This document shows positions 33,748 through 51,413 of a DNA stretch of 64,000 bases, one piece after another (positions within the stretch are counted from its first letter, which is position 1; each line of letters begins with the position of its first letter). The DNA lies in assembly GCF_050920415.1 (NCBI RefSeq), contig NZ_CP169309.1. One strand, 5' to 3'. This DNA comes from Escherichia coli (lineage in GTDB: Bacteria; Pseudomonadota; Gammaproteobacteria; Enterobacterales; Enterobacteriaceae). Under the pieces are notes generated by a model that made no database searches, was not told the origin of the DNA, and saw only the letters and a program-made list of their open reading frames with translations. The translations under genes were made by a program, and so were the position numbers.

Positions 33748-34020
33748 TTATAATTGAATTAATCCACGGATGCGATAGTTGAGATCTTACATATTGTTGG
33801 TTAAAGAGATGTAGATCAAATTGATCGTAATTAAGACTTTTTGATTATGTCCGATTTCGGACAAATGCTTTATAAAAAAGGTTTTAGCTTCGTATTCTTC
33901 AAGAAATGAGGGAGAAAACAAGGCTGACTACCTTATTTTCTCACTCGCATTTCGAGGCAGCATTTTGTGCTCTGTTTAAAATTTGTGATCACAGTGTGAT
34001 TTTCACAAAAGGCACACTAT

Positions 34021-34914
<894 letters not shown>

Positions 34915-34956
34915 TTACCTCATCAATCGCTTGTAGTTATATGTTGTGTTGTGCAC

Positions 34957-34988
34957 ATCTATCCGTTTAGACGTCCAGATGTAAAGAT
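34957..34988 (-). promoter_or_regulatory. MetJ operator (tandem met boxes) upstream of metF
   Basis: Minus-strand sequence ctttacatctggacgtctaaacggatagat contains tandem 8 bp repeats resembling the met-box consensus AGACGTCT. Confidence 0.75.
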
Positions 34989-35204
34989 GAAGGAAAAGCT
35001 GAAGGGCGTCAACCGAAAAATGACCAATGATGGTGAGGAAAAATCAGGGAAGATGAAAAAAATTCATCTTAATTAGAGGTAATAAATAGATTTCTTTATA
35101 GCGCAATCAACCTCACTCGTTTTGACTGATATACAGGCAACACAACGGCACCTGTTTCTCATTCGAAAAACAACGCCCTGCCACCAGATGGTGATGCTAA
35201 AGCA

Positions 35205-35245
35205 TCTGATTCGGCCTGCGCTCTCGTGTAGGCCGAATACAGAAT
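35205..35245. repeat. REP-like palindrome near the left edge of the metF-metL accessory segment
   Basis: Inverted repeat attcggcctgcgctctcgtgtaggccgaat. Confidence 0.4.
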
Positions 35246-35294
35246 CTGCGAAATCAACGGGTAACAAACAGCAGAGTCAACTCAGTGCGTACTT

Positions 35295-36850
35295 TTATTT
35301 AATATCTTTCACGCGCATACCGTTGATCTGTTCATCCGTGATGGTATTACCCGCTTTAAAGTAATCAACCACCGCGTGATAAACGTAATAACCGCCCGTC
35401 GTATTGCGCGCTTTACCCTCGGTAAACGCGGTAAAACCATCTCCACCATCAGCAAGGAAACTCTGAGTGGCAATGTGGTAAACCGTCGCATCTTCAATCG
35501 GTTTGCCATTCAAAGTCAGTGAGATAACCCGCTGACCAACCGGCTTGCTGCTGTCGTACTTCATTTCCAGGCCTTTCGATACCTGTAAAACGCCATTACT
35601 TAAACTTGCGCCGTGTTCCATCAAACTGCGTAATTGTTTACCCGTGAGATCCATCGTCACCAGTTCGTTGGGGAACGGGAAGGTACTGATGACGCCACCC
35701 ATCGTAATTGCACCCGCCGGGATCTCATTGCGAATCCCGCCAGAGTTGGTTAACGCCAACTGGGTATTTTTACCCGCCGCTGCCAGCAAAGCGTCCGCCG
35801 CCAGGTTCCCGAGGGAAGCCGATTCACCATAGGCACGTTTTAATTCAACCGGCGATTGCGCCACCGTTTGCTGACTTCATCCAGCTTTTTGTTCCAACTA
35901 TCAATCACCTGTTTCGTTTGCGGATCGGGCTTCCACTCATCGGCGTAAAGGGTTTTAAGCTCGAAGTTTTTCACCGTAAAAGTGTGCGGCTTCTCTTTGT
36001 AGTCGAGAACCAGTTTACCCACATCAATCCCGCCGCTGTCAGTGGAGAGGATTAACGTATTGCCGACTTTAATCGGTTCCGGCGTACCCACATGTGCATG
36101 CCCGGTGATCAAAATATCCAGCCCTTTCACCTGACTTGCCGTCTGAATATCTTTATCCAGCGCGCGACGCACATCTGTGCCTCCCATACTGGACTGGCGG
36201 GCCGGAACACCTTCGTGGATCAGGGCAACGGTCAAATCAACCTTGCCTTTGAGTTCATCGATATAACGTTGTAGCCATTTAATTTCATCACGCGCCTCAA
36301 TACCCACTCGCGTTGCCGCAGATACCGTATCATTAAAGGCAAATACACCGTGCAAACCAATCACGCCAATTTTCACGCCGTCTTTTTCAATGATGGTATA
36401 GGGCTTATCCCAGAATGATTTACTGCTGTTCTGATAAAAAACATTACCCTGCACAATCGGGAATTTTGCCTGACTCAGCTGTAATAACGTATTGTCCCAG
36501 CCGTGATCAAATTCATGATTACCTATAGTGACCGCATCGAACGGCATGGTATTCATAATATCGATAATCGCCTTGCCTTTAGTCAGGCTGCTGATATACG
36601 GCCCGGTAAAATAGTCACCCGCATCAAAAAACCAGGTCGCTTTGTTTTTAGCTTTTTCTTGTTTAACAAGCGTAGTGATATTTGCCCAGCCGCCAATATC
36701 TCGTTTACCGTCAGCAATCCACGGCACTTTATAAGGCTCTACATGTGCATGGAGGTCGTTGGTATAAATGATGGTGACATCTTTGGCGCAAGCCCAAAAC
36801 GGCAGTGTTAATGCGATACCCGCAGCAAGCATTTTAATTTTCATAAACAA
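35295..36850 (-). pseudogene. Frameshifted periplasmic 5'-nucleotidase/metallophosphatase paralog (UshA/CpdB-type two-domain enzyme)
   Basis: ORF 35840..36850 (336 aa, signal peptide MFMKIKMLAAGIALTLPFWA; metallophosphatase motifs NDLHAH, DAGDYF, GNHEFD, GHAH) is followed in another frame by ORF 35295..35864 (189 aa, nucleotidase C-terminal domain). The two parts align end-to-end with the intact downstream paralog, so a single frameshift near 35860-35875 splits one gene. Confidence 0.75.
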
Positions 36851-36903
36851 TCCCTTCCAGTGAGATAAAGGATTGCTACATTACGTTCTGAAAGGCTTTT
36901 TTA

Positions 36904-36919
36904 TGTGAGAATACTCACA
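36904..36919. promoter_or_regulatory. CRP-type palindrome (TGTGA-N6-TCACA) in the divergent promoter region
   Basis: tgtgagaatactcaca is a perfect match to both CRP half-sites with a 6 bp spacer, lying between the nucleotidase pseudogene start (36850) and the Cys-rich ORF start (36977). Confidence 0.55.
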
Positions 36920-36976
36920 TCCAGAGGCGATAACTGTAGGACAAAATCAACGACCTTATGAAATCGTTGGTGATAT

Positions 36977-38104
36977 ATGTCAAATCTGTTTGCGATTAAT
37001 GTCTGTAAAACGTTCGGTTGTCGAAATTTGGGATTGGCCTCATCGGAAGATTACAGTTGGCCAGACTATAAACTGGGTTTTCCGGCACTACACTGCCAGG
37101 CATGCGGAAGTTACCCCCCTTTGTTTGATGAACAACAATTTCGTGACTGGTTGTCAGTTCACATGACTACGTGTGCCATAGAAACAGGGCATTTTTGTCC
37201 ATCATGCTATTGTAAAGAAAAGATTTTTTATGGCCACAACCCGCAGGGAACACAACGCGTTCAATGCCGTTCATGCAAAAAAGTCTGGACTCCGAAACAG
37301 CAGCCAGCAAGAGAAATTACGTATCCCCAGTCCATTGAAACCGTTCAACTGTTCATGCCCTTTCAAGGAGCCAGCGCACTACAAAAGCTCTATGTTTTAG
37401 TCAGTCTTGACGCCACTCGTGGCAACATCCTTCATCTCTCCACGAATTATACGCAACATCAGACAGGAGACAGTCTGCGGTACAGTTACAGAGGCAATAC
37501 AGAACCAACTGAGCACCATAGCGATATTGTGCAGAGGGTAGATATGCGTGAAGCGCAATTCTTGCGCCGGAGCCAGTTCGATGAAATTCAGTATGGCAGT
37601 GCTGTGCTCAAGCGCAATGGCAAGGGAGCCATACTACGCCCGGTTATCACGGCACACGGGCATTTCAGAATACTGAAAATCCGCTTTCCACATGTCAAAA
37701 CGCATATCATTTCACACGAATGTTTTCTGAGAGGCGCAATTATTACAGCCTGGGCAGATCAGTTCCGCCAACAACAAGGCGAACTTTGGTTCGTAGAAGA
37801 AGAAATCAGCGACCGTAACGCTGATATTCCCTGGCATTTTCAGGGAACGACATACCATGGTTGGTGGCAAAATCAGTGGCAACGCTGGGGGCAGGGGAAT
37901 AACAGCAAGATGGTCTGCCTGCTCACAGGAGTCTCCTTAGAAAGGGGCGCAAATGTTTCTCTGGCAACCAGTCGTTGCTTTATCACATGGCTGACAGACC
38001 AACACGACTTTACCCAAAGCGCGTTATTATCCGCAGGTCGCGTAACGAAAATGCTGACCTCACTGGCGTTAAAATACAATGAATCGCTCAATCCATCTTG
38101 TTAG
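36977..38104 (+). CDS. Hypothetical cysteine-rich protein with an IS1 InsA-like N-terminal zinc ribbon
   Basis: 375 aa. N-terminal 100 aa carry CxxxxC, CxxC, CxxC and CxxC motifs (CKTFGC, CQAC, CPSC, CRSC); the stretch CPSC..RVQCRSCKKVW resembles the IS1 InsA zinc finger CPSC..RYLCSHCRKTW as I recall it. No recognisable DDE or HTH motif seen by eye in the remaining 270 aa. Flanked by AT-rich DNA. Confidence 0.6.
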   Translation: MSNLFAINVCKTFGCRNLGLASSEDYSWPDYKLGFPALHCQACGSYPPLFDEQQFRDWLSVHMTTCAIETGHFCPSCYCKEKIFYGHNPQGTQRVQCRSCKKVWTPKQQPAREITYPQSIETVQLFMPFQGASALQKLYVLVSLDATRGNILHLSTNYTQHQTGDSLRYSYRGNTEPTEHHSDIVQRVDMREAQFLRRSQFDEIQYGSAVLKRNGKGAILRPVITAHGHFRILKIRFPHVKTHIISHECFLRGAIITAWADQFRQQQGELWFVEEEISDRNADIPWHFQGTTYHGWWQNQWQRWGQGNNSKMVCLLTGVSLERGANVSLATSRCFITWLTDQHDFTQSALLSAGRVTKMLTSLALKYNESLNPSC

Positions 38105-38333
38105 TCAATACACTCGACAAACGACCATAAATTAATGGGATCACTATTTCTCATTTAATTAAATATATGAATGTATGACTGAAAAATATAATCACAGTCA
38201 ATGTTTAATTAATAACATTATTTGTTACTAAGATCACATAATACTTTCCTGACCTATGCTTACATAAAAATAAGACACGGAGTTCCTTTTATTTAAATAA
38301 TTCAACCAATGTAACAACCCCTATCAAGGAGGG

Positions 38334-39887
38334 ATGATGAGAACTGTATTTACGACTTTATCAGTCATATTCAGCGTGATGTTTTCTCACAGTATACTAG
38401 CTCAGGACGTTACTATTTATTATACGAATGATATTCACGCACATGTCAATCCGGCAAAAATTCCCGCTGTTGATAAGAACAGACTTGTAGGTGGTATGGC
38501 TAATATCGCAGGCATCGTTAATGAAGCGAAGAAAAAAAACAAAGATGTCTTTTTCTTTGATGCAGGCGACTATTTTACCGGTCCGTATATCAGTACCCTG
38601 ACCAAAGGTGAAGCTATTATTGATATCATGAACACCATGCCCTTTGATGCGGTGTCCGTTGGTAATCACGAGTTCGATCACGGCGTGCCCAATATGGTAT
38701 CTCAGTTATCAAAAGCAAAATTCCCCATTCTGCTGGGAAATATTTACTACACCGATACAAATAAACCAGTTTGGGATCATCCGTGGACCATTATCGAAAA
38801 AGATGGTTTAAAGATTGGTGTGATTGGATTGCATGGTGCATTCGCTTTCTATGATACAGTCGCGGCAAAAGCACGTGAAGGCGTAGAAGCCAGAGACGAA
38901 ATTAAATATTTAAATAAAGCACTTGCAGAATTAAAAGGTAAAGTCGACATTACCGTTTTGCTAATTCACGAAGGTGTTCCGGCGCGTCAATCAAGCTTTG
39001 GTAGTAAAGATGTGGAGCGGCTACTACAGGCAGATATTGAGACAGCTAAAAAAGTGAATGGTGTTGATGTCTTAATTACCGGTCACGCACATGTCGGAAC
39101 ACCGCAACCAATAAAAGTTAATAACACATTAATTGTATCTACCGATGCATACGGCACCGACATCGGAAAACTTGTGCTTGATTACAATCCGAAAACAAAG
39201 AAAATTGATAGTTATAATGGTGAGTTAATCACCATCTTTGCAGATCAATTTAAACCTGACACCATCGTTCAAAATACTATCGATAAATGGAGCGTAAAAC
39301 TTAACAAAATAACACAGGAAGTTGTCGGCCATTCTCCCGTAGTTTTAACACGTGAGTATGGCAGTTCTTCTTCTACCGGTAACCTTATTCTGGATGCAAT
39401 GATGGAAAAAACACCTGATGCCATTGCCGGATTTCAAAATAGCGGTGGGATGCGAGCTGATTTTCCTAAAGGTGATATCACACTGGGAGATGTTATTAGC
39501 ACATTCCCCTTTAATAATGACCTCATCGAGATGGATTTGACGGGCCGCGATCTCAAATCGTTGATGACGCATGCAACCAATCTAACTAACGGTGTGTTAC
39601 AGGTTTCAAAAAGCGTTGCGGTTGTCTATGACAGCAAAAAACCACTCAACCAACGGTTAATCTCTTTCACCATTAACGGCAAACCCGTGGAAGATAATCA
39701 AACATATCGTATTGCCACGCACTCCTTTTGTGCCAGTGGTGGTGACGGTTTTGAAGCATTTTTGAATGGAAAAAATGTGAAGACGATACCGGGAACAACC
39801 TCGGCGGAATCAATCATCGATTATTTCAAAAATCATAAACCTGTCACCCCAGACTTAACTAAACGAGTCATGGACGTCGCCAAATAA
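38334..39887 (+). CDS. Periplasmic 5'-nucleotidase/metallophosphatase (UshA/CpdB family), paralog B
   Basis: 517 aa; signal peptide MMRTVFTTLSVIFSVMFSHSILA; all metallophosphatase motifs present (NDIHAH, DAGDYF, GNHEFD, GHAH) plus a C-terminal nucleotidase domain. Strong RBS aggaggg; the start may be the second ATG at 38337. Confidence 0.8.
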   Translation: MMRTVFTTLSVIFSVMFSHSILAQDVTIYYTNDIHAHVNPAKIPAVDKNRLVGGMANIAGIVNEAKKKNKDVFFFDAGDYFTGPYISTLTKGEAIIDIMNTMPFDAVSVGNHEFDHGVPNMVSQLSKAKFPILLGNIYYTDTNKPVWDHPWTIIEKDGLKIGVIGLHGAFAFYDTVAAKAREGVEARDEIKYLNKALAELKGKVDITVLLIHEGVPARQSSFGSKDVERLLQADIETAKKVNGVDVLITGHAHVGTPQPIKVNNTLIVSTDAYGTDIGKLVLDYNPKTKKIDSYNGELITIFADQFKPDTIVQNTIDKWSVKLNKITQEVVGHSPVVLTREYGSSSSTGNLILDAMMEKTPDAIAGFQNSGGMRADFPKGDITLGDVISTFPFNNDLIEMDLTGRDLKSLMTHATNLTNGVLQVSKSVAVVYDSKKPLNQRLISFTINGKPVEDNQTYRIATHSFCASGGDGFEAFLNGKNVKTIPGTTSAESIIDYFKNHKPVTPDLTKRVMDVAK

Positions 39888-39921
39888 AATATCATTTATC
39901 AGTCTATATATTTAACAAGGA

Positions 39922-41547
39922 ATGCGAATGAAAACAGTGCAGCGTACTTTACTTGCCGCAACATTGCTGACTATTTTTTCGGTCTCAGTCATGGCGCAGG
40001 ATGGCACGATTATTTATACAAATGATCTTCACACTCATGTGGATTCTTATAAAGTGCCGTATATCGCAGACGGAAAACGCGACATTGGCGGCTTTGCCAA
40101 TATATCTACTTTAGTAAAACAAGAGAAAGCGAAAAATAAAGCCACCTTTTATTTTGATGCTGGAGACTATTTCACCGGCCCTTATATCAGCAGTCTGACA
40201 AAGGGCGAAGCAATAATTGACATTATGAATACCATGCCTTTTGACGCAGTATCAATCGGCAATCATGAGTTTGACCATGGCTGGGATAATGCCCTGCGAC
40301 AATTAAGCAAAGCGAATTTTCCTGTTTTATTGGGCAATGTTTATCATAAAGAGAGTGAGAAACCCTTCTGGAACAAGCCCTACACCATCCTGGAAAAAGA
40401 TGGCATCAAGATTGGTATTATTGGGCTACACGGCGTATTTGCATTTAATGATACGGTCTCGGAGCTCTCTCTCCAGGGACTCGATAATGACAATAATAAC
40501 CGCTTTGATAAATCTTCCGAGACCCTTAAGAATCAGGGGATTGAAGCACGTGATGAAGTGAAGTATTTGCAGCATTATATCGACGAGTTACGTGATAAGG
40601 TTGACCTCACTGTGGCGCTGGTTCATGAAGGCGTTCCGGCGCGTCAGTCCAGCATTGGCAATACAGATGTTAGACGCGCTCTTGATAAAGATATTCAAAC
40701 CGCTAGCAAGGTGAAAGGATTGGATATTCTGATTACCGGGCATGCCCACGTCGGAACGCCAGAACCAATCAAAGTCGGCAACACCTTAATCCTTTCGACT
40801 GATAGTGGCGGTATCGATATTGGTAAATTAGTCCTTGATGTCAACCCTACAGCTCGTACCCATAAAATGAAGAGCTTTGAGCTGAAAACAGTTTATGCCG
40901 ATGAATGGATACCCGATCCAACGACACAAAAAGTTATCAATGGCTGGAATAAAAAACTGGCGGATATTGTACGCCAACCAGTGGGTGAATCATCGATTGT
41001 ATTAACTCGCGCCTATGGTGAGTCATCGCAACTAGGCAACCTGTTTACCGATGCAATGCTTGTCGCTGCTCCGACTGCACAGATTGCATTGATAAACTCC
41101 GGCAGCTTACGTGCGGATATAAATGCAGGCACGATTACCTTTGGCGACATTACCAGTACATTCCCCTTCAAGAATGAACTTACTGAAATGGATCTCAGCG
41201 GTAAGGATCTGCGTAACCTACTGGAACACGGGGCATCGCTTACCAATGGCATCCTGCAAATGTCAAAAGGCGCAGAAATGCGCTATACCCCGCAGAAACC
41301 AGTAGGTCAGCGCATAGTATCTTTTAAAATTAATGGTGAAGAGATCGTTGATACGAATATTTACCATGTTGCAACAACGACTTTCCTTGCACTGGGGGGC
41401 GATGGTTTTCTGGCATTCAAAGAAGGGAAAAATGTTCAGGTCCGCGCCAGAAATAACATGTCCGATGTCGTGATCGATTATTTGAAGAAAGGCCACAAGA
41501 TTACGCCTGCACAGGTAAATGAAATGCGGGTGGACGTTAGCAAATAA
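39922..41547 (+). CDS. Periplasmic 5'-nucleotidase/metallophosphatase (UshA/CpdB family), paralog C
   Basis: 541 aa; signal peptide MRMKTVQRTLLAATLLTIFSVSVMA; metallophosphatase motifs intact. The N-terminal domain is about 80-85% identical to the frameshifted paralog and carries an extra N/D-rich segment of about 25 aa. Confidence 0.8.
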   Translation: MRMKTVQRTLLAATLLTIFSVSVMAQDGTIIYTNDLHTHVDSYKVPYIADGKRDIGGFANISTLVKQEKAKNKATFYFDAGDYFTGPYISSLTKGEAIIDIMNTMPFDAVSIGNHEFDHGWDNALRQLSKANFPVLLGNVYHKESEKPFWNKPYTILEKDGIKIGIIGLHGVFAFNDTVSELSLQGLDNDNNNRFDKSSETLKNQGIEARDEVKYLQHYIDELRDKVDLTVALVHEGVPARQSSIGNTDVRRALDKDIQTASKVKGLDILITGHAHVGTPEPIKVGNTLILSTDSGGIDIGKLVLDVNPTARTHKMKSFELKTVYADEWIPDPTTQKVINGWNKKLADIVRQPVGESSIVLTRAYGESSQLGNLFTDAMLVAAPTAQIALINSGSLRADINAGTITFGDITSTFPFKNELTEMDLSGKDLRNLLEHGASLTNGILQMSKGAEMRYTPQKPVGQRIVSFKINGEEIVDTNIYHVATTTFLALGGDGFLAFKEGKNVQVRARNNMSDVVIDYLKKGHKITPAQVNEMRVDVSK

Positions 41548-41558
41548 TAAAAAATTAT

Positions 41559-41594
41559 AATGCCATTCATTCACTGAATGGCATTATTTTTCTC
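41559..41594 (+). terminator. Intrinsic terminator after nucleotidase paralog C
   Basis: aatgccattca ttcac tgaatggcatt followed by a T-rich run. Confidence 0.6.
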
Positions 41595-41624
41595 TAAATC
41601 AACAATAAATAATGAGATATATTT

Positions 41625-42485
41625 ATGTGTATAAAAAAGCACGGGATAGCTTTATCGATTCTATTAATACCTTGCATTGGAAACGCTCAGGAAATTAAAA
41701 GTGAGGAAGGCTGGTTACATCAAAGCTTGAATGTCATTGGTCGCACAGACTCTCGCTTTGGCCCAAGGCTGACTAACGACCTCTACCCTGAATATACTGT
41801 AGCAGGAAGAAAAGACTGGTTTGATTTTTATGGTTATGTTGATCTACCAAAATTCTTTGGCGTCGGCAGTCACTATGATGTTGGGATCTGGGATGAGGGC
41901 TCACCACTATTTACGGAAATAGAACCTCGGTTTTCCATTGACAAATTGACCGGATTAAATCTTGCGTTCGGCCCTTTTAAAGAATGGTTCATTGCAAACA
42001 ACTATGTCTATGATATGGGTGACAACCAGTCATCCCGGCAAAGTACATGGTATATGGGGCTTGGTACAGATATCGACACGGGTCTACCAATTAAGCTTTC
42101 TGCCAATATATACACCAAGTATCAGTGGCAAAACTATGGTGCCGCTAATGAAAATGAATGGGACGGATATCGATTCAAAATAAAATATAGCATTCCTCTT
42201 ACCCATTTATTCGGAGGGCGATTGGTATACAATAGTTTTACTAACTTTGATTTTGGCTCCGATCTTGCGGACAAATCACACAATAATAAACGAACCAGTA
42301 ATGCTATTGCTTCAAGCCATATCCTTTCCCTGCTATATGAACACTGGAAATTTGCATTTACACTACGTTATTTTCACAACGGTGGACAATGGAATGCTGG
42401 GGAGAAAGTTAACTTCGGAGATGGTCCATTTGAATTAAAAAACACAGGATGGGGAACCTATACTACTATTGGTTATCAATTTTAA
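41625..42485 (+). CDS. Tsx-family nucleoside-specific outer membrane channel paralog
   Basis: 286 aa; aligns along its whole length with E. coli Tsx as I recall it (e.g. [63 protein letters not shown]). Signal peptide present. Confidence 0.8.
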
Positions 42486-42664
42486 ATCAGGTGATGTTTT
42501 AGATATTTTTACTTAATGCCATTTTGTAATTGTCATAAATAACTTCACCATTCACACTGTGAATTCATCGCTCAACACAAAAGCCCCTTATTACCGGGGC
42601 ACTGACCAAAGGCAAAATGACAATCAATCACCACCTCCGCAGGAGGTGGTTTAGAGGTGACAAC

Positions 42665-42690
42665 AAAAGCTGGCAACTGCCAGCTTTTGT
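42665..42690. terminator. Bidirectional intrinsic terminator downstream of metL
   Basis: aaaagctggcaactgccagctttt, a perfect hairpin flanked by an A-run and a T-run. Confidence 0.7.
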
Positions 42691-42700
42691 TCAATAATCA

Positions 42701-45133
42701 CTACAACAACTGCGCCAGACGGTTAATATCCGACTGAATCGCCCCGGCGGTGACGTCGCGCCCTGCACCTGGCCCGCGGATCACCAGCGGGTTGTCGCGA
42801 TACCAGCGGCTTTCGATGGCAAAGACGTTATCGCACGGTAGTAGTGATGCCAGCGGATGGTCTTCTCGCACCGCTTCCACGCCTACTCGCGCTTTGCCGT
42901 TGGCATCGAAACGCGCCACGTAGCGCAACACCAGCCCCATTTCACGGGCCGCTTCCAACCGTTGTACCATCTGCTCATTAAGTTCATCGCCATTTTCAAA
43001 GAAATGGTCGATGCTTCCACCTTCGCAATGGGTTGGCACCAGTGATTCAACACGCACCTGGTCCGGTTCAATGTTGTAACCCGCTTCACGCGCCAGAATC
43101 ACCAGCTTGCGCATCACGTCTTTGCCGGAGAGGTCATCACGCGGGTCAGGTTCAGTTAAGCCCTGCTGCCACGCCTGATCCACCAGCTCGGTAAACGGCA
43201 CGCTACCGTCGAATTGCAGGAACAGCCAGGAGAGTGTGCCGGAGAAGATCCCGCTGATCGACAAAATAGTGTCGCCGCTGTCGATCAGATCGCGCACGGT
43301 ATGGTTGATCGGCAAACCTGCGCCGACGGTGGCGTTGTATAGCCAGTGACGCCCGGTTTTTTCGAACGCGTCGTGGATCTGGCGATATTTATTGCTGTCG
43401 CTCGCTCCCGCCAGTTTGTTGGCACTGATGACGTGGAAACCGTGGCTGGCGAAATCGAGGTATTGATCGGCCAGTTGCTGACTGGCGGTAACGTCCAGCA
43501 CCACTAAATCATCATACGGATGGGCACGCATCCACAGGAACAGCGACTCTTCATCCTGTTCGACGGCTTCATCATTAAAGAAGGCTAGCGCACGGCTGGC
43601 GTCCAGCCCGTCATAGCTCAACAGGCTGCGACGGCTGTCCACCACGCCTGCCAGCACAAATTCAAAGCCGGTGCGCGCCGAGAGCGTGCTCTGCTCACGG
43701 GCGAACAGTTCCAGCCAGCGGGAACCGATATTGCCCTTACCGAACAATACCAGGCCGATGCGTTTTTCTGCGCGGAAGACGGACTGATGCAGCCCCTGAA
43801 TCAGGCTTTCGGTCGGCCCGGTGCGCAGTACTGCCACCAGGCTGATGCCGTCATCGGACTGCCAGGTAAACTCGACCGGCTGGCCTTTCAGTTGCTGCCA
43901 GAAGCGGTGGCAATGCAGCGGGTTACGGGTGACGCCCGCCCCAACCATCGCCACCAGCGCCAGCCCCTGACGCAGGCGCAGTTCGCCAGGTAATCCTGCT
44001 TCGTCGAGGATTTTCAGCGCACTGTCGGCCACTTCCGAGGTGTAGCAAAATTGCAGCAACTGGCGATCGTTATGCACGCCAACCGCCAGTGGGCGCACCT
44101 GAGCACGTTTCAGGATTTGGTCGATCTCTTTATGCGCCAGTTTGAAATCCTGACTGGCGGGCACCTGAAACTCAATCAAACAGACATCATCGTGGCTGGT
44201 GACAATACGCGCGCCCGTACCGGAAGCCAGCACGCGTTCAATGCGCGTGGAACCTTGATCCGGTGTATAGCTACAGCGCAGCTGCAGGTCGATTTCACTG
44301 CCAGAAACTGGCTGTAAAGTACGCGCGTGCAACACTGGCGCGGCAAGACGCGCCAGTTCGCTGGCTTCATCAAGACGCAGCAATGGCAGCAGACAGGCAT
44401 CTTTCACTTTACGCGGGTCGGCGCTATATACCCCGGCGACGTCACTCCAGATGGTTACGCGGGAAACTCCCGCCAGCGCACCGATTTGTGTCGCGGAATA
44501 GTCGGAACCGTTACGCCCCAGCAGCACCGTTTCACCGGCGTTGTTACGGCTGATAAACCCGGTCACCACCAGACGTTTGCCCGGATGTTGTACCAGTAGC
44601 TGTTGCAGCAACGGGTAAGAAAGCCCTTCATCAACCTGCGGCTGCGCGGCGCGTTCAGCGCGTAAAAACTCGCGGGCATCAAGCCAGGCCGCTGGCAATC
44701 CTTGTTGATTAAGTACCGCAGACATCAGGCGCGCCGACCACACTTCACCGTGGCCCACCACTTCCGCATACACCGCATCGTTAATACCGCTGTCGAGCAG
44801 CGCCGCCAGGCGTTCCAGATCGCTGACAAAAGCGCTAATGAGGCTATCGGCTTCTTCAGCGGGTAGCAGGCCGCTAATCAGATCGCACTGATAACGACGT
44901 AGCGTTTGTTGAACCTGATGCGCAGAGAGACGATCGGTCTGGCTTAGTTTCAACCAGTTAATCAACTGGTTAGTGGTGCTACCGGCGGCGGAAACCACCA
45001 TCATATCGTCAGGCTGAGAGTACTCCGCCATAATGCCCGCGACACGCAAATAACACTTCACATCAGCCAGACTACTGCCACCAAATTTATGCAGTTGACG
45101 ACCTTTCGCCCCTGCCTGCGCAATCACACTCAT
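42701..45133 (-). CDS. metL: Bifunctional aspartokinase II / homoserine dehydrogenase II
   Basis: 810 aa, MSVIAQAGAKGRQLHKFGGSSLADVKCYLRVAGIMAEY... Confidence 0.96.
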   Translation of the reverse strand: MSVIAQAGAKGRQLHKFGGSSLADVKCYLRVAGIMAEYSQPDDMMVVSAAGSTTNQLINWLKLSQTDRLSAHQVQQTLRRYQCDLISGLLPAEEADSLISAFVSDLERLAALLDSGINDAVYAEVVGHGEVWSARLMSAVLNQQGLPAAWLDAREFLRAERAAQPQVDEGLSYPLLQQLLVQHPGKRLVVTGFISRNNAGETVLLGRNGSDYSATQIGALAGVSRVTIWSDVAGVYSADPRKVKDACLLPLLRLDEASELARLAAPVLHARTLQPVSGSEIDLQLRCSYTPDQGSTRIERVLASGTGARIVTSHDDVCLIEFQVPASQDFKLAHKEIDQILKRAQVRPLAVGVHNDRQLLQFCYTSEVADSALKILDEAGLPGELRLRQGLALVAMVGAGVTRNPLHCHRFWQQLKGQPVEFTWQSDDGISLVAVLRTGPTESLIQGLHQSVFRAEKRIGLVLFGKGNIGSRWLELFAREQSTLSARTGFEFVLAGVVDSRRSLLSYDGLDASRALAFFNDEAVEQDEESLFLWMRAHPYDDLVVLDVTASQQLADQYLDFASHGFHVISANKLAGASDSNKYRQIHDAFEKTGRHWLYNATVGAGLPINHTVRDLIDSGDTILSISGIFSGTLSWLFLQFDGSVPFTELVDQAWQQGLTEPDPRDDLSGKDVMRKLVILAREAGYNIEPDQVRVESLVPTHCEGGSIDHFFENGDELNEQMVQRLEAAREMGLVLRYVARFDANGKARVGVEAVREDHPLASLLPCDNVFAIESRWYRDNPLVIRGPGAGRDVTAGAIQSDINRLAQLL

Positions 45134-50232: not shown

Positions 50233-50387
50233 TGCGCAAACGATGCGAGGCGGATCGAAAAATTCAATATTCATCACACTTTTCATGAAAATTCTGTAAC
50301 CGTTTTCACGCGCTATCTGCTAAAAATGTTGCCGATGTGAAGTAAACATGGAAGTAGTACGCCTGCCGTGCCGGGCGAGGAGTGAGT

Positions 50388-51413
50388 GTGAAAGCGAAGA
50401 AGCAGGAAACTGCCGCGACCATGAAAGACGTTGCCCTGAAGGCAAAAGTCTCTACAGCGACCGTCTCCCGAGCATTAATGAATCCCGATAAAGTCTCCCA
50501 GGCCACCCGTAATCGGGTTGAAAAAGCGGCCCGGGAAGTAGGTTATTTGCCGCAGCCTATGGGGCGCAACGTCAAACGTAATGAATCCCGCACCATTCTG
50601 GTGATTGTCCCGGATATCTGCGATCCCTTCTTTAGCGAAATTATTCGCGGTATCGAAGTTACGGCGGCAAATCACGGATATCTGGTGCTGATTGGCGACT
50701 GTGCGCATCAAAATCAGCAGGAAAAAACCTTTATCGATTTGATTATCACCAAGCAAATTGATGGCATGTTGCTGCTGGGTTCAAGGCTGCCGTTTGATGC
50801 CAGCATTGAGGAACAGCGTAATCTGCCGCCGATGGTGATGGCGAACGAATTTGCGCCGGAACTGGAGCTGCCTACAGTTCATATCGACAATCTGACCGCG
50901 GCATTTGATGCAGTAAATTATTTATATGAGCAAGGTCATAAACGGATTGGCTGTATAGCCGGTCCCGAAGAGATGCCGCTGTGTCACTACCGCCTGCAAG
51001 GCTACGTTCAGGCGCTGCGTCGCTGCGGCATTATGGTTGATCCGCAATACATCGCCCGGGGCGACTTCTCCTTTGAAGCCGGAAGCAACGCGATGCAACA
51101 GCTGCTTGCTCTTCCGCAACCGCCTACTGCTGTCTTCTGCCATAGCGATGTAATGGCGCTCGGCGCACTTTCTCAGGCAAAACGCCAGGGGCTGAAAGTC
51201 CCGGATGATCTATCCATAATCGGTTTTGATAACATCGACCTGACGCAATTTTGTGATCCGCCGCTGACAACCATCGCGCAGCCGCGTTACGAAATCGGTC
51301 GGGAAGCTATGCTGTTATTGCTTGATCAAATGCAGGGGCAACACGTTGGCAGTGGCTCTCGTTTAATGGACTGCGAACTTATCATCCGGGGATCAACACG
51401 CGCGTTACCTTAA
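50388..51413 (+). CDS. cytR: LacI-family repressor CytR (nucleoside catabolism/transport regulon)
   Basis: MKAKKQETAATMKDVALKAKVSTATVSRALMNPDKVS...; GTG start inferred from the conserved N-terminus. Confidence 0.93.
   Translation: MKAKKQETAATMKDVALKAKVSTATVSRALMNPDKVSQATRNRVEKAAREVGYLPQPMGRNVKRNESRTILVIVPDICDPFFSEIIRGIEVTAANHGYLVLIGDCAHQNQQEKTFIDLIITKQIDGMLLLGSRLPFDASIEEQRNLPPMVMANEFAPELELPTVHIDNLTAAFDAVNYLYEQGHKRIGCIAGPEEMPLCHYRLQGYVQALRRCGIMVDPQYIARGDFSFEAGSNAMQQLLALPQPPTAVFCHSDVMALGALSQAKRQGLKVPDDLSIIGFDNIDLTQFCDPPLTTIAQPRYEIGREAMLLLLDQMQGQHVGSGSRLMDCELIIRGSTRALP

Follow-up and report, generated by a model that had tools for sequence, protein, structure and literature searches.

The metF-metL interval of a 64,000-nucleotide stretch of Escherichia coli DNA (contig NZ_CP169309.1, the whole of which is called the window below) carries an insert that encodes three periplasmic 5'-nucleotidase paralogs (nt1, nt2 and nt3), a paralog of the outer-membrane channel Tsx and a cysteine-rich zinc-ribbon protein. 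An earlier reading of the stretch from its letters, referred to here as the original prediction, had mentioned the last of these as a side item with an InsA-like ribbon. The 14 cysteines and a weak InsA match are indeed there, but this protein turned out to be the most informative part of the insert. The nucleotidase and tsx-like genes form a real, polymorphic and already catalogued accessory metabolic cluster, which taken alone is ordinary and of modest interest. The zinc-ribbon family, in contrast, appears from its sequences and gene neighbourhoods to be an undescribed group of domesticated proteins that descend from IS1-like transposases and have a link to the scavenging of nucleosides and nucleotides.

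Relative to K-12, the insert covers positions 35067-42700 and lies between the upstream region of metF and the stop codon of metL. Its 7634 bp (43% GC) agree with the about 7.5 kb of extra DNA that had been predicted here, and the five genes and the CRP-type palindrome were all found where, or close to where, the original prediction had placed them. The borders follow from a BLAST comparison in which the window was searched with the K-12 spacer. The K-12-type metF-metL spacer is 348 bp long (L003:4013-4360); its first 155 bp match window positions 34912-35066, and the rest of it (194 bp) is filler resembling repetitive extragenic palindromic (REP) sequences and unrelated to the window, so that the empty K-12 site is no clean deletion scar. 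According to the open reading frame (ORF) listing, the insert is flanked on the left by metF (34021-34911, minus strand), preceded by katG, and on the right by metL (42701-45133, minus strand), followed by metB. From left to right, the order is metF (-), nt1 (-), the zinc-ribbon gene (+), nt2 (+), nt3 (+), the tsx-like gene (+) and metL (-). GC content amounts to 52-58% in the flanks and 40-48% in the five insert genes, with nt2, nt3 and the tsx-like gene at 40-44%, and drops to 21-28% in those spacers that lie right of the zinc-ribbon gene. All five insert genes are under purifying selection, with ratios of nonsynonymous to synonymous substitution rates (dN/dS) of 0.03-0.26. The 155-bp segment common to K-12 and the window holds a Met-box-like sequence, AGACGTCCAGATGT, near position 34958.

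Some other functions were considered and discarded. PADLOC models for anti-phage defence gave zero matches to the four intact proteins of the insert, which spoke against a defence system. An Rfam search of positions 34000-43500 returned no match at E<=0.1, and a structured RNA or riboswitch was dropped. Pho regulation was rejected since no spacer contains a Pho box at up to four mismatches.

The locus is not new to the literature, contrary to the impression of the original prediction that the operon was undescribed. The tsx-like gene is catalogued as c4894 of strain CFT073, nt1 is represented by the Protein Data Bank entries 3IVD and 3IVE, and the insert of phylogroup B2 strains corresponds to 'GR 31, metL..metF' of the avian pathogenic E. 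coli (APEC) strain BEN2908, which is reported to occur in all extraintestinal pathogenic (ExPEC) and adherent-invasive (AIEC) strains compared in that study (PMC12928451). The same study lists four ORFs, leaves the Cys-rich gene unmentioned and arrives at the same scavenging proposal by bioinformatics (PMC12928451). The scavenging idea for the cluster is thus plausible and not new. Our literature search on locus tags, PDB codes and domesticated IS1 found no study of enzymology, genetics or regulation.

Nucleotidases and the Tsx-like channel

Two of the nucleotidase genes are intact. The gene nt2 spans 38334-39887 on the plus strand (start 38337 in the NCBI annotation pipeline, PGAP) and its product matches the Pfam families 5_nucleotid_C (3.5e-36) and Metallophos (3e-12), and nt3 spans 39922-41547 on the plus strand (PGAP start 39928) and encodes Metallophos and 5_nucleotid_C (1.7e-36) domains as well. 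The reading frame of nt1 (35295-36844, minus strand), which belongs to the PDB 3IVD subfamily, is broken in the window and distributed over the ORFs 35295-35864 and 35840-36850. PGAP labels it as a frameshifted pseudogene in NZ_CP169399, a genome 100% identical to the window. Comparison with the intact B2 allele (locus L051) identifies the lesion as a 4-bp deletion (GGTG) within GAAGTGGTGCA near position 35874 that leads to a premature stop. A 191-bp probe spanning the lesion matched 1842 of the 5426 complete E. coli genomes in our survey, and the deletion is found in a single one of these, namely NZ_CP169399. Since it is private, the deletion is no feature of the locus, and the pseudogene is either a private, recent event or an assembly error. 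The original prediction was therefore right about a frameshift in one paralog, but the defect concerns 1 of 1842 genomes. The repaired nt1 protein is 98-99% identical to the intact alleles, and dN/dS of nt1 is 0.03-0.05.

The three nucleotidases share 54-66% identity with each other and only 23-25% with UshA of K-12. None of the NCBIfam equivalog cut-offs for UshA, CpdB, NadN, SoxB and others was reached, with scores far below them. Still, the assignment to UshA-type metallophosphatases/5'-nucleotidases is borne out by the Pfam domains and by the residues that an alignment with UshA reveals. The metal ligands D41, H43, D84, N116, H217 and H252 and the H117-D120 dyad are kept in intact nt1 alleles, nt2 and nt3, and equivalents of R410, N431 and the base clamp F429/F498 are kept in all three paralogs and their relatives. 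The metal ligands, the dyad, R410 and the base clamp are present in all 35 subfamily members examined, save one divergent Vibrio sequence at some positions. UshA residues R375 and R379, in contrast, are not kept in the subfamily (gap, Tyr). The insert enzymes thus have in common with the UshA/5'-nucleotidase family the two-domain build, the dimetal site, the His-Asp dyad, the Phe-Phe base clamp and a Sec signal. Signal peptides encoded by the insert were judged by eye only, with ACA|KD, ILA|QD, VMA|QD and GNA|QE as candidate cleavage sites. The insert enzymes differ from UshA in that the subfamily is split into nt1, nt2 and nt3 clades and is accompanied by a zinc-ribbon partner. In a neighbour-joining tree, the nucleotidase partners of the Cys-rich gene make up the nt1 clade, nt3 is its sister, nt2 forms a clade of its own and UshA branches far outside as the outgroup. 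The degree of divergence leads us to infer that the three paralogs cover different substrates.

Structures 3IVD and 3IVE, deposited by structural genomics as 'Nucleotidase', are 99% identical to the B2 allele of nt1 and presumably contain uridine and cytidine. A feature seen in nt3 and absent from nt1 and nt2 is an Asn-rich insert of about 24 amino acids (SELSLQGLDNDNNNRFDKSSETLKNQG, residues ~170-195, window 40430-40510). The nt3 orthologues are of near-equal length (539 amino acids for the B2 allele; copies from Enterobacter and Citrobacter align over residues 5-541), which suggests that they also bear this insert.

The tsx-like gene (41625-42485, plus strand) encodes a channel of 286 amino acids that ends in ...GYQF. 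With 489.9 bits against a cut-off of 311 for NCBIfam PRK15106 (profile positions 6-289 of 289) and an E value of 1.3e-69 for Pfam Channel_Tsx, its predicted membership in the Tsx family is confirmed. It aligns with residues 11-272 of E. coli Tsx (1TLW), that is, with the entire barrel, at E 5e-114. The 12-strand barrel known from PDB 1TLW, 1TLY and 1TLZ is therefore matched in full length, and the paralog also has a C-terminal Phe. In comparison with Tsx, the protein is a second copy beside the chromosomal tsx that is about two-thirds identical and has a 5-residue loop deletion and many substitutions in the loop region; moreover, it is encoded alongside periplasmic phosphoesterases, whereas the tsx gene stands alone. 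PGAP calls the tsx-like gene of NZ_CP169399 (ACE00D_RS24180) 'partial, missing C-terminus'. The ORF in fact covers the entire Tsx profile, and its end, ...TIGYQF, agrees with that of the intact B2 allele; the label probably arose as an artefact of annotation.

The spacer between nt3 and the tsx-like gene contains a perfect, AT-rich hairpin (41557-41587) whose 13-bp stem is bordered by T-runs on both sides and both strands and which may be an attenuator or a terminator. Because the hairpin separates the two genes, the tsx-like gene may be controlled separately. A transcriptome after over-expression of TosR lists c4894 as induced, and as the only gene of the cluster (PMC5956150).

Distribution and origin of the locus

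The full five-gene form occurs in 658 of the 5426 complete genomes and a two-gene form consisting of nt1 and the Cys-rich gene (for example locus L002) in about 1180-1270, the figure of about 1270 being the count by its Cys-rich allele at >=90% identity. The remaining genomes are K-12-like with an empty site and the 348-bp spacer. The presence/absence polymorphism that had been anticipated at this junction thus exists. Beyond E. coli, scanning one genome per species yielded 36 loci, and wherever the flanking sequence sufficed, which was the case for 35 of them, a nucleotidase gene lies divergent to the Cys-rich gene. The metF-metL interval is home to the pair in Escherichia, Citrobacter, Klebsiella, Kosakonia, Phytobacter, Pseudocitrobacter, Superficieibacter and Kluyvera and, in truncated form, in Salmonella arizonae. 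Due to this synteny in at least nine enterobacterial genera, the pair is ancestral at the site, and the K-12 state a loss.

The two members of the pair have different histories in E. coli. Among the three E. coli forms, nt1 is 98-99% identical, and its dS of 0.16-0.29 resembles that of metF and metL. For the Cys-rich protein, identity among E. coli forms is 73-89%, and between the five-gene and the two-gene form it is 73-77% with dS of 1.2-1.9. According to this contrast in dS, the five-gene form consists of native nt1 and of a foreign block with nt2, nt3, the tsx-like gene and its allele of the Cys-rich gene. A second type of locus, found in Enterobacter and Citrobacter, has nt1, one or two copies of nt2, tsx and nt3 on the strand opposite to the Cys-rich gene, and its nt3 genes are 85-87% identical to nt3 of the insert. 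One contig deposited as 'E. coli SCPM-O-B-8794' (L020, NZ_JAATUR010000031.1) carries the Enterobacter-type second locus. This locus is absent from all 5426 complete E. coli genomes, and the contig is probably a contaminant that we set aside.

We therefore distinguish two layers. Layer 1, as judged from synteny, is an old enterobacterial unit of nt1 and the divergent zinc-ribbon gene with a common 132-bp control region that includes a CRP palindrome. Layer 2 is an add-on, seen at this site only in E. coli, that consists of nt2, nt3, the Tsx paralog and a foreign zinc-ribbon allele. The term accessory island, used in the original prediction, fits layer 2 but not the ancestral pair. The idea that an entire self-contained island was acquired, in which nucleotides are dephosphorylated in the periplasm and the nucleosides then pass through a dedicated Tsx-like pore, has the polymorphism within E. 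coli, the GC content of nt2, nt3 and the tsx-like gene and the foreign zinc-ribbon allele in its favor. Nevertheless, we regard it as improbable: the syntenic pair in nine genera and the near-identity of nt1 speak for vertical descent, the pore belongs to the outer membrane, whereas the enzymes release their products into the periplasm, and the ORF listing of the insert shows no gene for an inner-membrane transporter. A scavenging role as such remains plausible, but the predicted route of nucleosides through the Tsx pore after the enzymes is topologically wrong, and the module is not self-contained.

The zinc-ribbon protein, its relatives and their gene neighbourhoods

The zinc-ribbon gene (36977-38104, plus strand) is a single ORF for a 'cytoplasmic protein' of 375 amino acids that represents a short form of its family. 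The family alignment reveals two Cys4 ribbons, C10/15/40/43 and C74/77/97/100, the second of which is basic (net charge +6 for residues 71-115). For the window protein itself, the E value is 0.009 with the InsA ribbon (Pfam PF03811) and 7e-4 with the NCBIfam IS1 model; among 51 family members, 8 match the InsA ribbon at E<=1e-3, the best at 1.4e-7. A search of 1.84 billion representative proteins gave 122 representatives of the family. Full-length members have 370-530 amino acids with identities down to ~20%, the named ones come from Enterobacterales and Vibrionaceae, and most are annotated as 'cytoplasmic protein', sometimes as 'IS1 family transposase'. Beyond the ribbon, there is no Pfam model for the family. 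Searching PDB sequences with a profile of the family alignment produced only compositional matches to C2H2 zinc fingers, which we discarded.

The link to IS1 is clearest in the long members, which have an extra segment of ~55 residues after ribbon 2. Ribbon 2 and this segment together align with the ribbon and helix-turn-helix (HTH) of real IS1 InsAB' with 96% hhalign probability (E 5.5e-9), and matches of long members to the NCBIfam model of the IS1 transposase (E 1e-9 to 1e-5) start at model position 1 and end between positions 81 and 130 of 199, thereby extending into the catalytic region. The HTH is thus kept in the long relatives. AlphaFold2 (AF2) models of the family, with confidence (pLDDT) values of 94 and 93, adopt the RNase H-like transposase fold with an added beta-sheet and a helical C-terminal extension. 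The alignment contains no invariant Asp. Acidic columns of the RNase H-like domain are limited to 145 (75%), 202 (86%) and 248 (100%, E248), and, according to alignment columns and predicted secondary structure, the beta1 and post-beta4 positions at which the Asp-Asp-Glu (DDE) triad is expected are not acidic. Instead, R198, Y206, P222, H229, H247, E248, W297, W301 and N368 are invariant or nearly so.

We found no terminal inverted repeats flanking the gene, and the active insertion sequence (IS) reading was rejected on that basis; the long 'inverted repeats' that were reported reflect similarity between paralogs. There is also no programmed -1 frameshift of the IS1 kind in the single uninterrupted ORF. 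The gene occupies the same syntenic site in nine genera with one copy per locus and has dN/dS of 0.10-0.26. The absence of terminal repeats and of a frameshift site and the fixed position mean that the gene is not mobile, and overall the protein looks like the offspring of an IS1-like transposase that has become immobile and lost its catalytic activity. The InsA-type Cys4 ribbon is common to IS1 InsA/InsAB', the window protein and its relatives, as is the RNase H-like DDE-transposase fold, whereas the HTH is found only in the long relatives. In contrast to IS1, the zinc-ribbon protein has an additional N-terminal Cys4 ribbon and is devoid of a conserved D-D-E, terminal repeats and the programmed frameshift, and its gene keeps to one place on the chromosome and evolves under purifying selection. 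A parallel can be drawn to the TldR repressors, nuclease-dead derivatives of TnpB, in which a mobile-element protein has likewise lost catalysis and become fixed beside host genes that it possibly controls. The zinc-ribbon protein differs from TldR in fold and mechanism, being a DDE/RNase H-like protein with zinc ribbons and without a guide RNA (as the Rfam search was negative), and its regulatory role would be deduced from context.

The gene neighbourhoods of distant members point in a common direction. These contexts were 12 single look-ups, since the species-wide profile scan reached only Enterobacteriaceae and one Rahnella contig. In 11 of the 12 independent contexts (members with 20-42% identity; the two enterobacterial locus types are counted), nucleotide or nucleoside genes are the neighbours. 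A Vibrio mimicus member is located directly downstream of a Metallophos/5_nucleotid_C gene, and members from Vibrio taketomensis, Photobacterium, a Citrobacter subgroup and a 42%-identical metagenomic sequence are divergent from such a gene. In Salmonella serovar Give, the divergent genes encode a porin, a class B acid phosphatase and a class II cyclic-nucleotide phosphodiesterase (PDEase_II). Member P0145 is divergent from a phosphopentomutase-like (deoB-like) gene, a nucleoside phosphorylase (PNP) gene and a NupG-type symporter gene, P0190 from a NupC-type transporter gene and P0202 from nupC-deoC-deoB-PNP-tsx. P0160 adjoins an operon of tsx and a 5'-nucleotidase gene as well as a gene of the sulfatase/phosphodiesterase family. 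For P0185, the contig is cut upstream, and a sulfatase and a radical-SAM (radical S-adenosylmethionine) maturase are seen. An outer-membrane channel is co-encoded with a periplasmic phosphoesterase in four independent contexts. By our estimate, nucleotide and nucleoside scavenging genes account for well under 1% of a genome, and chance is therefore not a credible explanation for 11 of 12 contexts. In most of them, the family member is a single gene divergent from its neighbours, an arrangement typical of dedicated regulators.

Additional phosphodiesterases may belong to these modules. The nt1-nt2-tsx-nt3 operon of Enterobacter asburiae ends with a radical-SAM gene resembling an anaerobic sulfatase maturase (L017:1955-3043, minus strand), and genes of the sulfatase/phosphodiesterase family flank two other members (L049:4299-5792 and L052:1632-4397), one of them with an rSAM/SPASM maturase. 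This recurring theme of the alkaline phosphatase superfamily and formylglycine suggests further periplasmic phosphodiesterases.

Given these neighbourhoods, it is very hard to believe that the zinc-ribbon gene is a decaying or mobile IS1-like element that became a neighbour of nucleotidase genes by chance. Some databases do call relatives 'IS1 family transposase', and homology to IS1 is present in the Zn-ribbon and HTH regions. However, purifying selection on the gene, a single copy at a fixed syntenic site across genera, the absence of terminal inverted repeats, of a conserved DDE triad and of the IS1 frameshift, and the thematic neighbourhood that recurs in 11 of 12 contexts all contradict it.

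An enzymatic function deserves more attention. The protein could take part in the turnover of nucleosides or nucleotides as an enzyme of the cytoplasm or as a factor that processes nucleic acids, such as a nuclease remodelled from the RNase H-like domain. The RNase H-like fold is common to nucleases, the HTH is gone from the short form, and R198, H229, H247, E248, W297 and W301, together with the largely acidic position 202 (D202), could be explained in this way. On the other hand, a single divergent gene upstream of catabolic and transport operons is the typical position of a regulator, and the N-terminal part, being of InsA type, is by origin a repressor module that binds DNA. Furthermore, the zinc-ribbon protein is Cys-rich and has no signal peptide while its usual partners are periplasmic, which makes a direct enzymatic partnership unlikely. 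We thus consider an enzyme or processing factor unlikely as well.

Control region and proposed regulation

The divergent spacer between nt1 and the zinc-ribbon gene has 132 bp (36845-36976) and is conserved across genera far beyond neutral expectation. At its middle lies the perfect CRP-type palindrome TGTGAGAATACTCACA (36904-36919), centred ~67 nt from the ATG of nt1 and ~65 nt from the ATG of the zinc-ribbon gene. It is the sole exact match to TGTGA-N6-TCACA in the 64 kb of the window, where 0.05 are expected. CRP half-sites occur at the equal position in 30 homologous intergenic regions, with 19 exact sites, 9 with one mismatch and 2 with two. The 6-bp centre varies while the half-sites are kept, as predicted for selection on a CRP site. 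The palindrome that had been noticed in the divergent promoter region is thus a conserved site. A class II CRP spacing is feasible in both directions if TAATGT (nt1) and CAAAAT (zinc-ribbon gene) are the -10 elements, which is our own reading based on putative starts; a generic promoter scan gave nothing in the 132-bp spacer.

Two further conserved elements accompany the CRP site. The 14-bp block TTACGTTCTGAAAG (36881-36894), with the core TTC-T-GAA, is located between the CRP site and the likely -10 element of nt1. It is near-invariant in 19 aligned loci from Escherichia, Citrobacter, Klebsiella, Kosakonia, Enterobacter and others, is unique in the window at zero mismatches and represents a candidate operator. 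On the other side, the bipartite element CAAAATCAACGACC-N6-AAATCGTTGGT (36942-36972, plus strand) ends 5 nt before the ATG of the zinc-ribbon gene and is in part an inverted repeat (CAACGA/TCGTTG). The right box does not vary among the enterobacterial loci, except that a divergent subgroup (L042, L045 and L004) has TCAGTTGG/TCTGTTGG instead. The element may be an autoregulatory operator or part of the 5' untranslated region (5'-UTR). RNAalifold on a rough alignment of the region upstream of the zinc-ribbon gene yielded no structure, and a strict RNA stem was discarded after inspection of the individual loci: the left arm varies freely at one position and the right arm is invariant.

Upstream of nt2, in a spacer of 28% GC, there is a CRP-like site with one mismatch, TGTTACTAAGATCACA (38223-38238). 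Its conservation in the B2 allele is weak evidence because that allele is 95% identical overall. About 75 bp downstream of the CRP-like site and before the start of nt2, two adjacent CytR-like octamers, AATTCAAC-C-AATGTAAC (38299-38315), have one mismatch each and, in 28%-GC DNA, could be chance matches. The insert shares a consensus CRP site and a Tsx-family gene with the CRP/CytR regulon (deo, udp, cdd, tsx, nupC and nupG). It differs from that regulon in that it has no convincing CytR operator architecture and encodes a family-specific partner protein of its own. Of the distant contexts, the one with deoB, PNP and nupG has an exact CRP site in the divergent spacer.

Taken together, we lean towards an extracytoplasmic nucleotide-scavenging locus built in two layers, with the IS1-derived zinc-ribbon protein as its likely regulator, and hold this to be somewhat better than an even guess. 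According to this model, high cAMP-CRP (cyclic AMP bound to CRP) would lead to Sec-dependent export of the nucleotidases, which would hydrolyze nucleotides in the periplasm to nucleosides and phosphate. The Tsx paralog would serve as the outer-membrane entry for the substrates of the module or, in parallel, for external nucleosides. It could not act downstream of the enzymes since periplasmic products are already inside the outer membrane. Nucleosides would then be taken up across the inner membrane by NupC/NupG encoded elsewhere, as the insert has no such transporter. The zinc-ribbon protein would be a locus-specific transcription regulator, possibly a sensor of nucleosides, that acts via the boxes beside the CRP site. 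From neighbourhood and ancestry we infer that it regulates the unit together with CRP. In IS1 itself, InsA is a DNA-binding repressor, and with this InsA N-terminus inherited, a dedicated regulator is the simplest reading. The broader proposal concerns the family as a whole: that the domesticated IS1-like proteins are dedicated, possibly nucleoside-sensing regulators of scavenging modules in Enterobacterales and Vibrionales, with the former active-site region repurposed for ligand binding, is a possibility that we rate as slightly short of an even chance. The modules in question comprise 5'-nucleotidases, acid phosphatase/phosphodiesterase, Tsx/porin channels, nupC/nupG and deo genes.

Several observations weigh against the two-layer model and the role of the zinc-ribbon protein in it. 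The chief objection to a regulator is the missing HTH of the enterobacterial short form: the window protein and other short forms have a gap where the InsA-type HTH would be, and DNA binding would then rest on the zinc ribbons alone. The hhalign comparison with IS1 is reliable over ribbon and HTH only, with an extension into the catalytic part at low confidence, and the absence of DDE is read from the columns of the alignment together with predicted secondary structure. An enzymatic site could instead be what the His, Glu, Arg and Trp residues conserved in the RNase H-like domain make up. Regarding control, neither TTACGTTCTGAAAG nor the bipartite boxes recur upstream of nt2, which leaves the control of layer 2 unexplained, and most vibrio contexts have no CRP-like sites. 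Finally, nt1 is inactive in this strain, and Tsx is known as a channel for nucleosides rather than nucleotides, which makes the place of the paralog in the pathway hard to assign.

The module might also mainly destroy extracellular signalling or immunomodulatory nucleotides such as ATP, NAD and cyclic di-nucleotides and thereby act as a fitness factor of ExPEC. Gram-positive ecto-nucleotidases of the same superfamily do so, and three paralogs as diverged as those of the insert suggest different substrates. Moreover, the five-gene form is found in B2 strains of the ExPEC, APEC and AIEC types (PMC12928451). The conserved CRP site and the linkage of the family to deo, nupC, nupG and PNP genes, however, point to nutrition, and the core pair is widespread in environmental Enterobacteriaceae that are not pathogenic. 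As a main function, we find the breakdown of signalling nucleotides doubtful. It could coexist with nutrition, as the two are not mutually exclusive.

If the scavenging locus is regulated as proposed, the implications reach beyond this insert. Eukaryotes are well known to have host genes that stem from DDE transposases, whereas such genes have rarely been documented in bacteria, and the family would provide a clear bacterial case of a domesticated transposase bound to one physiological theme. Enteric bacteria and vibrios would gain a regulator so far missing from their scavenging of nucleosides and nucleotides, a process that bears on the use of extracellular DNA and RNA, on nutrition in the gut and urinary tract and perhaps on purinergic signalling. 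A 'cytoplasmic protein' annotated in thousands of genomes would obtain a function, and the orphan structure 3IVD/3IVE as well as a region that separates B2 ExPEC from K-12 would gain a context.

To the right of the insert, the gene order is metL-metB-metJ-yiiX-priA-cytR-ftsN. The cytR gene itself (window 50382-51413; NCBIfam CytR, 710 bits) lies ~7.7 kb away from the insert. The gene rpmE directly follows a distant family member (L053) and is located between metJ and priA in Pseudocitrobacter (L055), a link that may reflect old synteny or coincidence.

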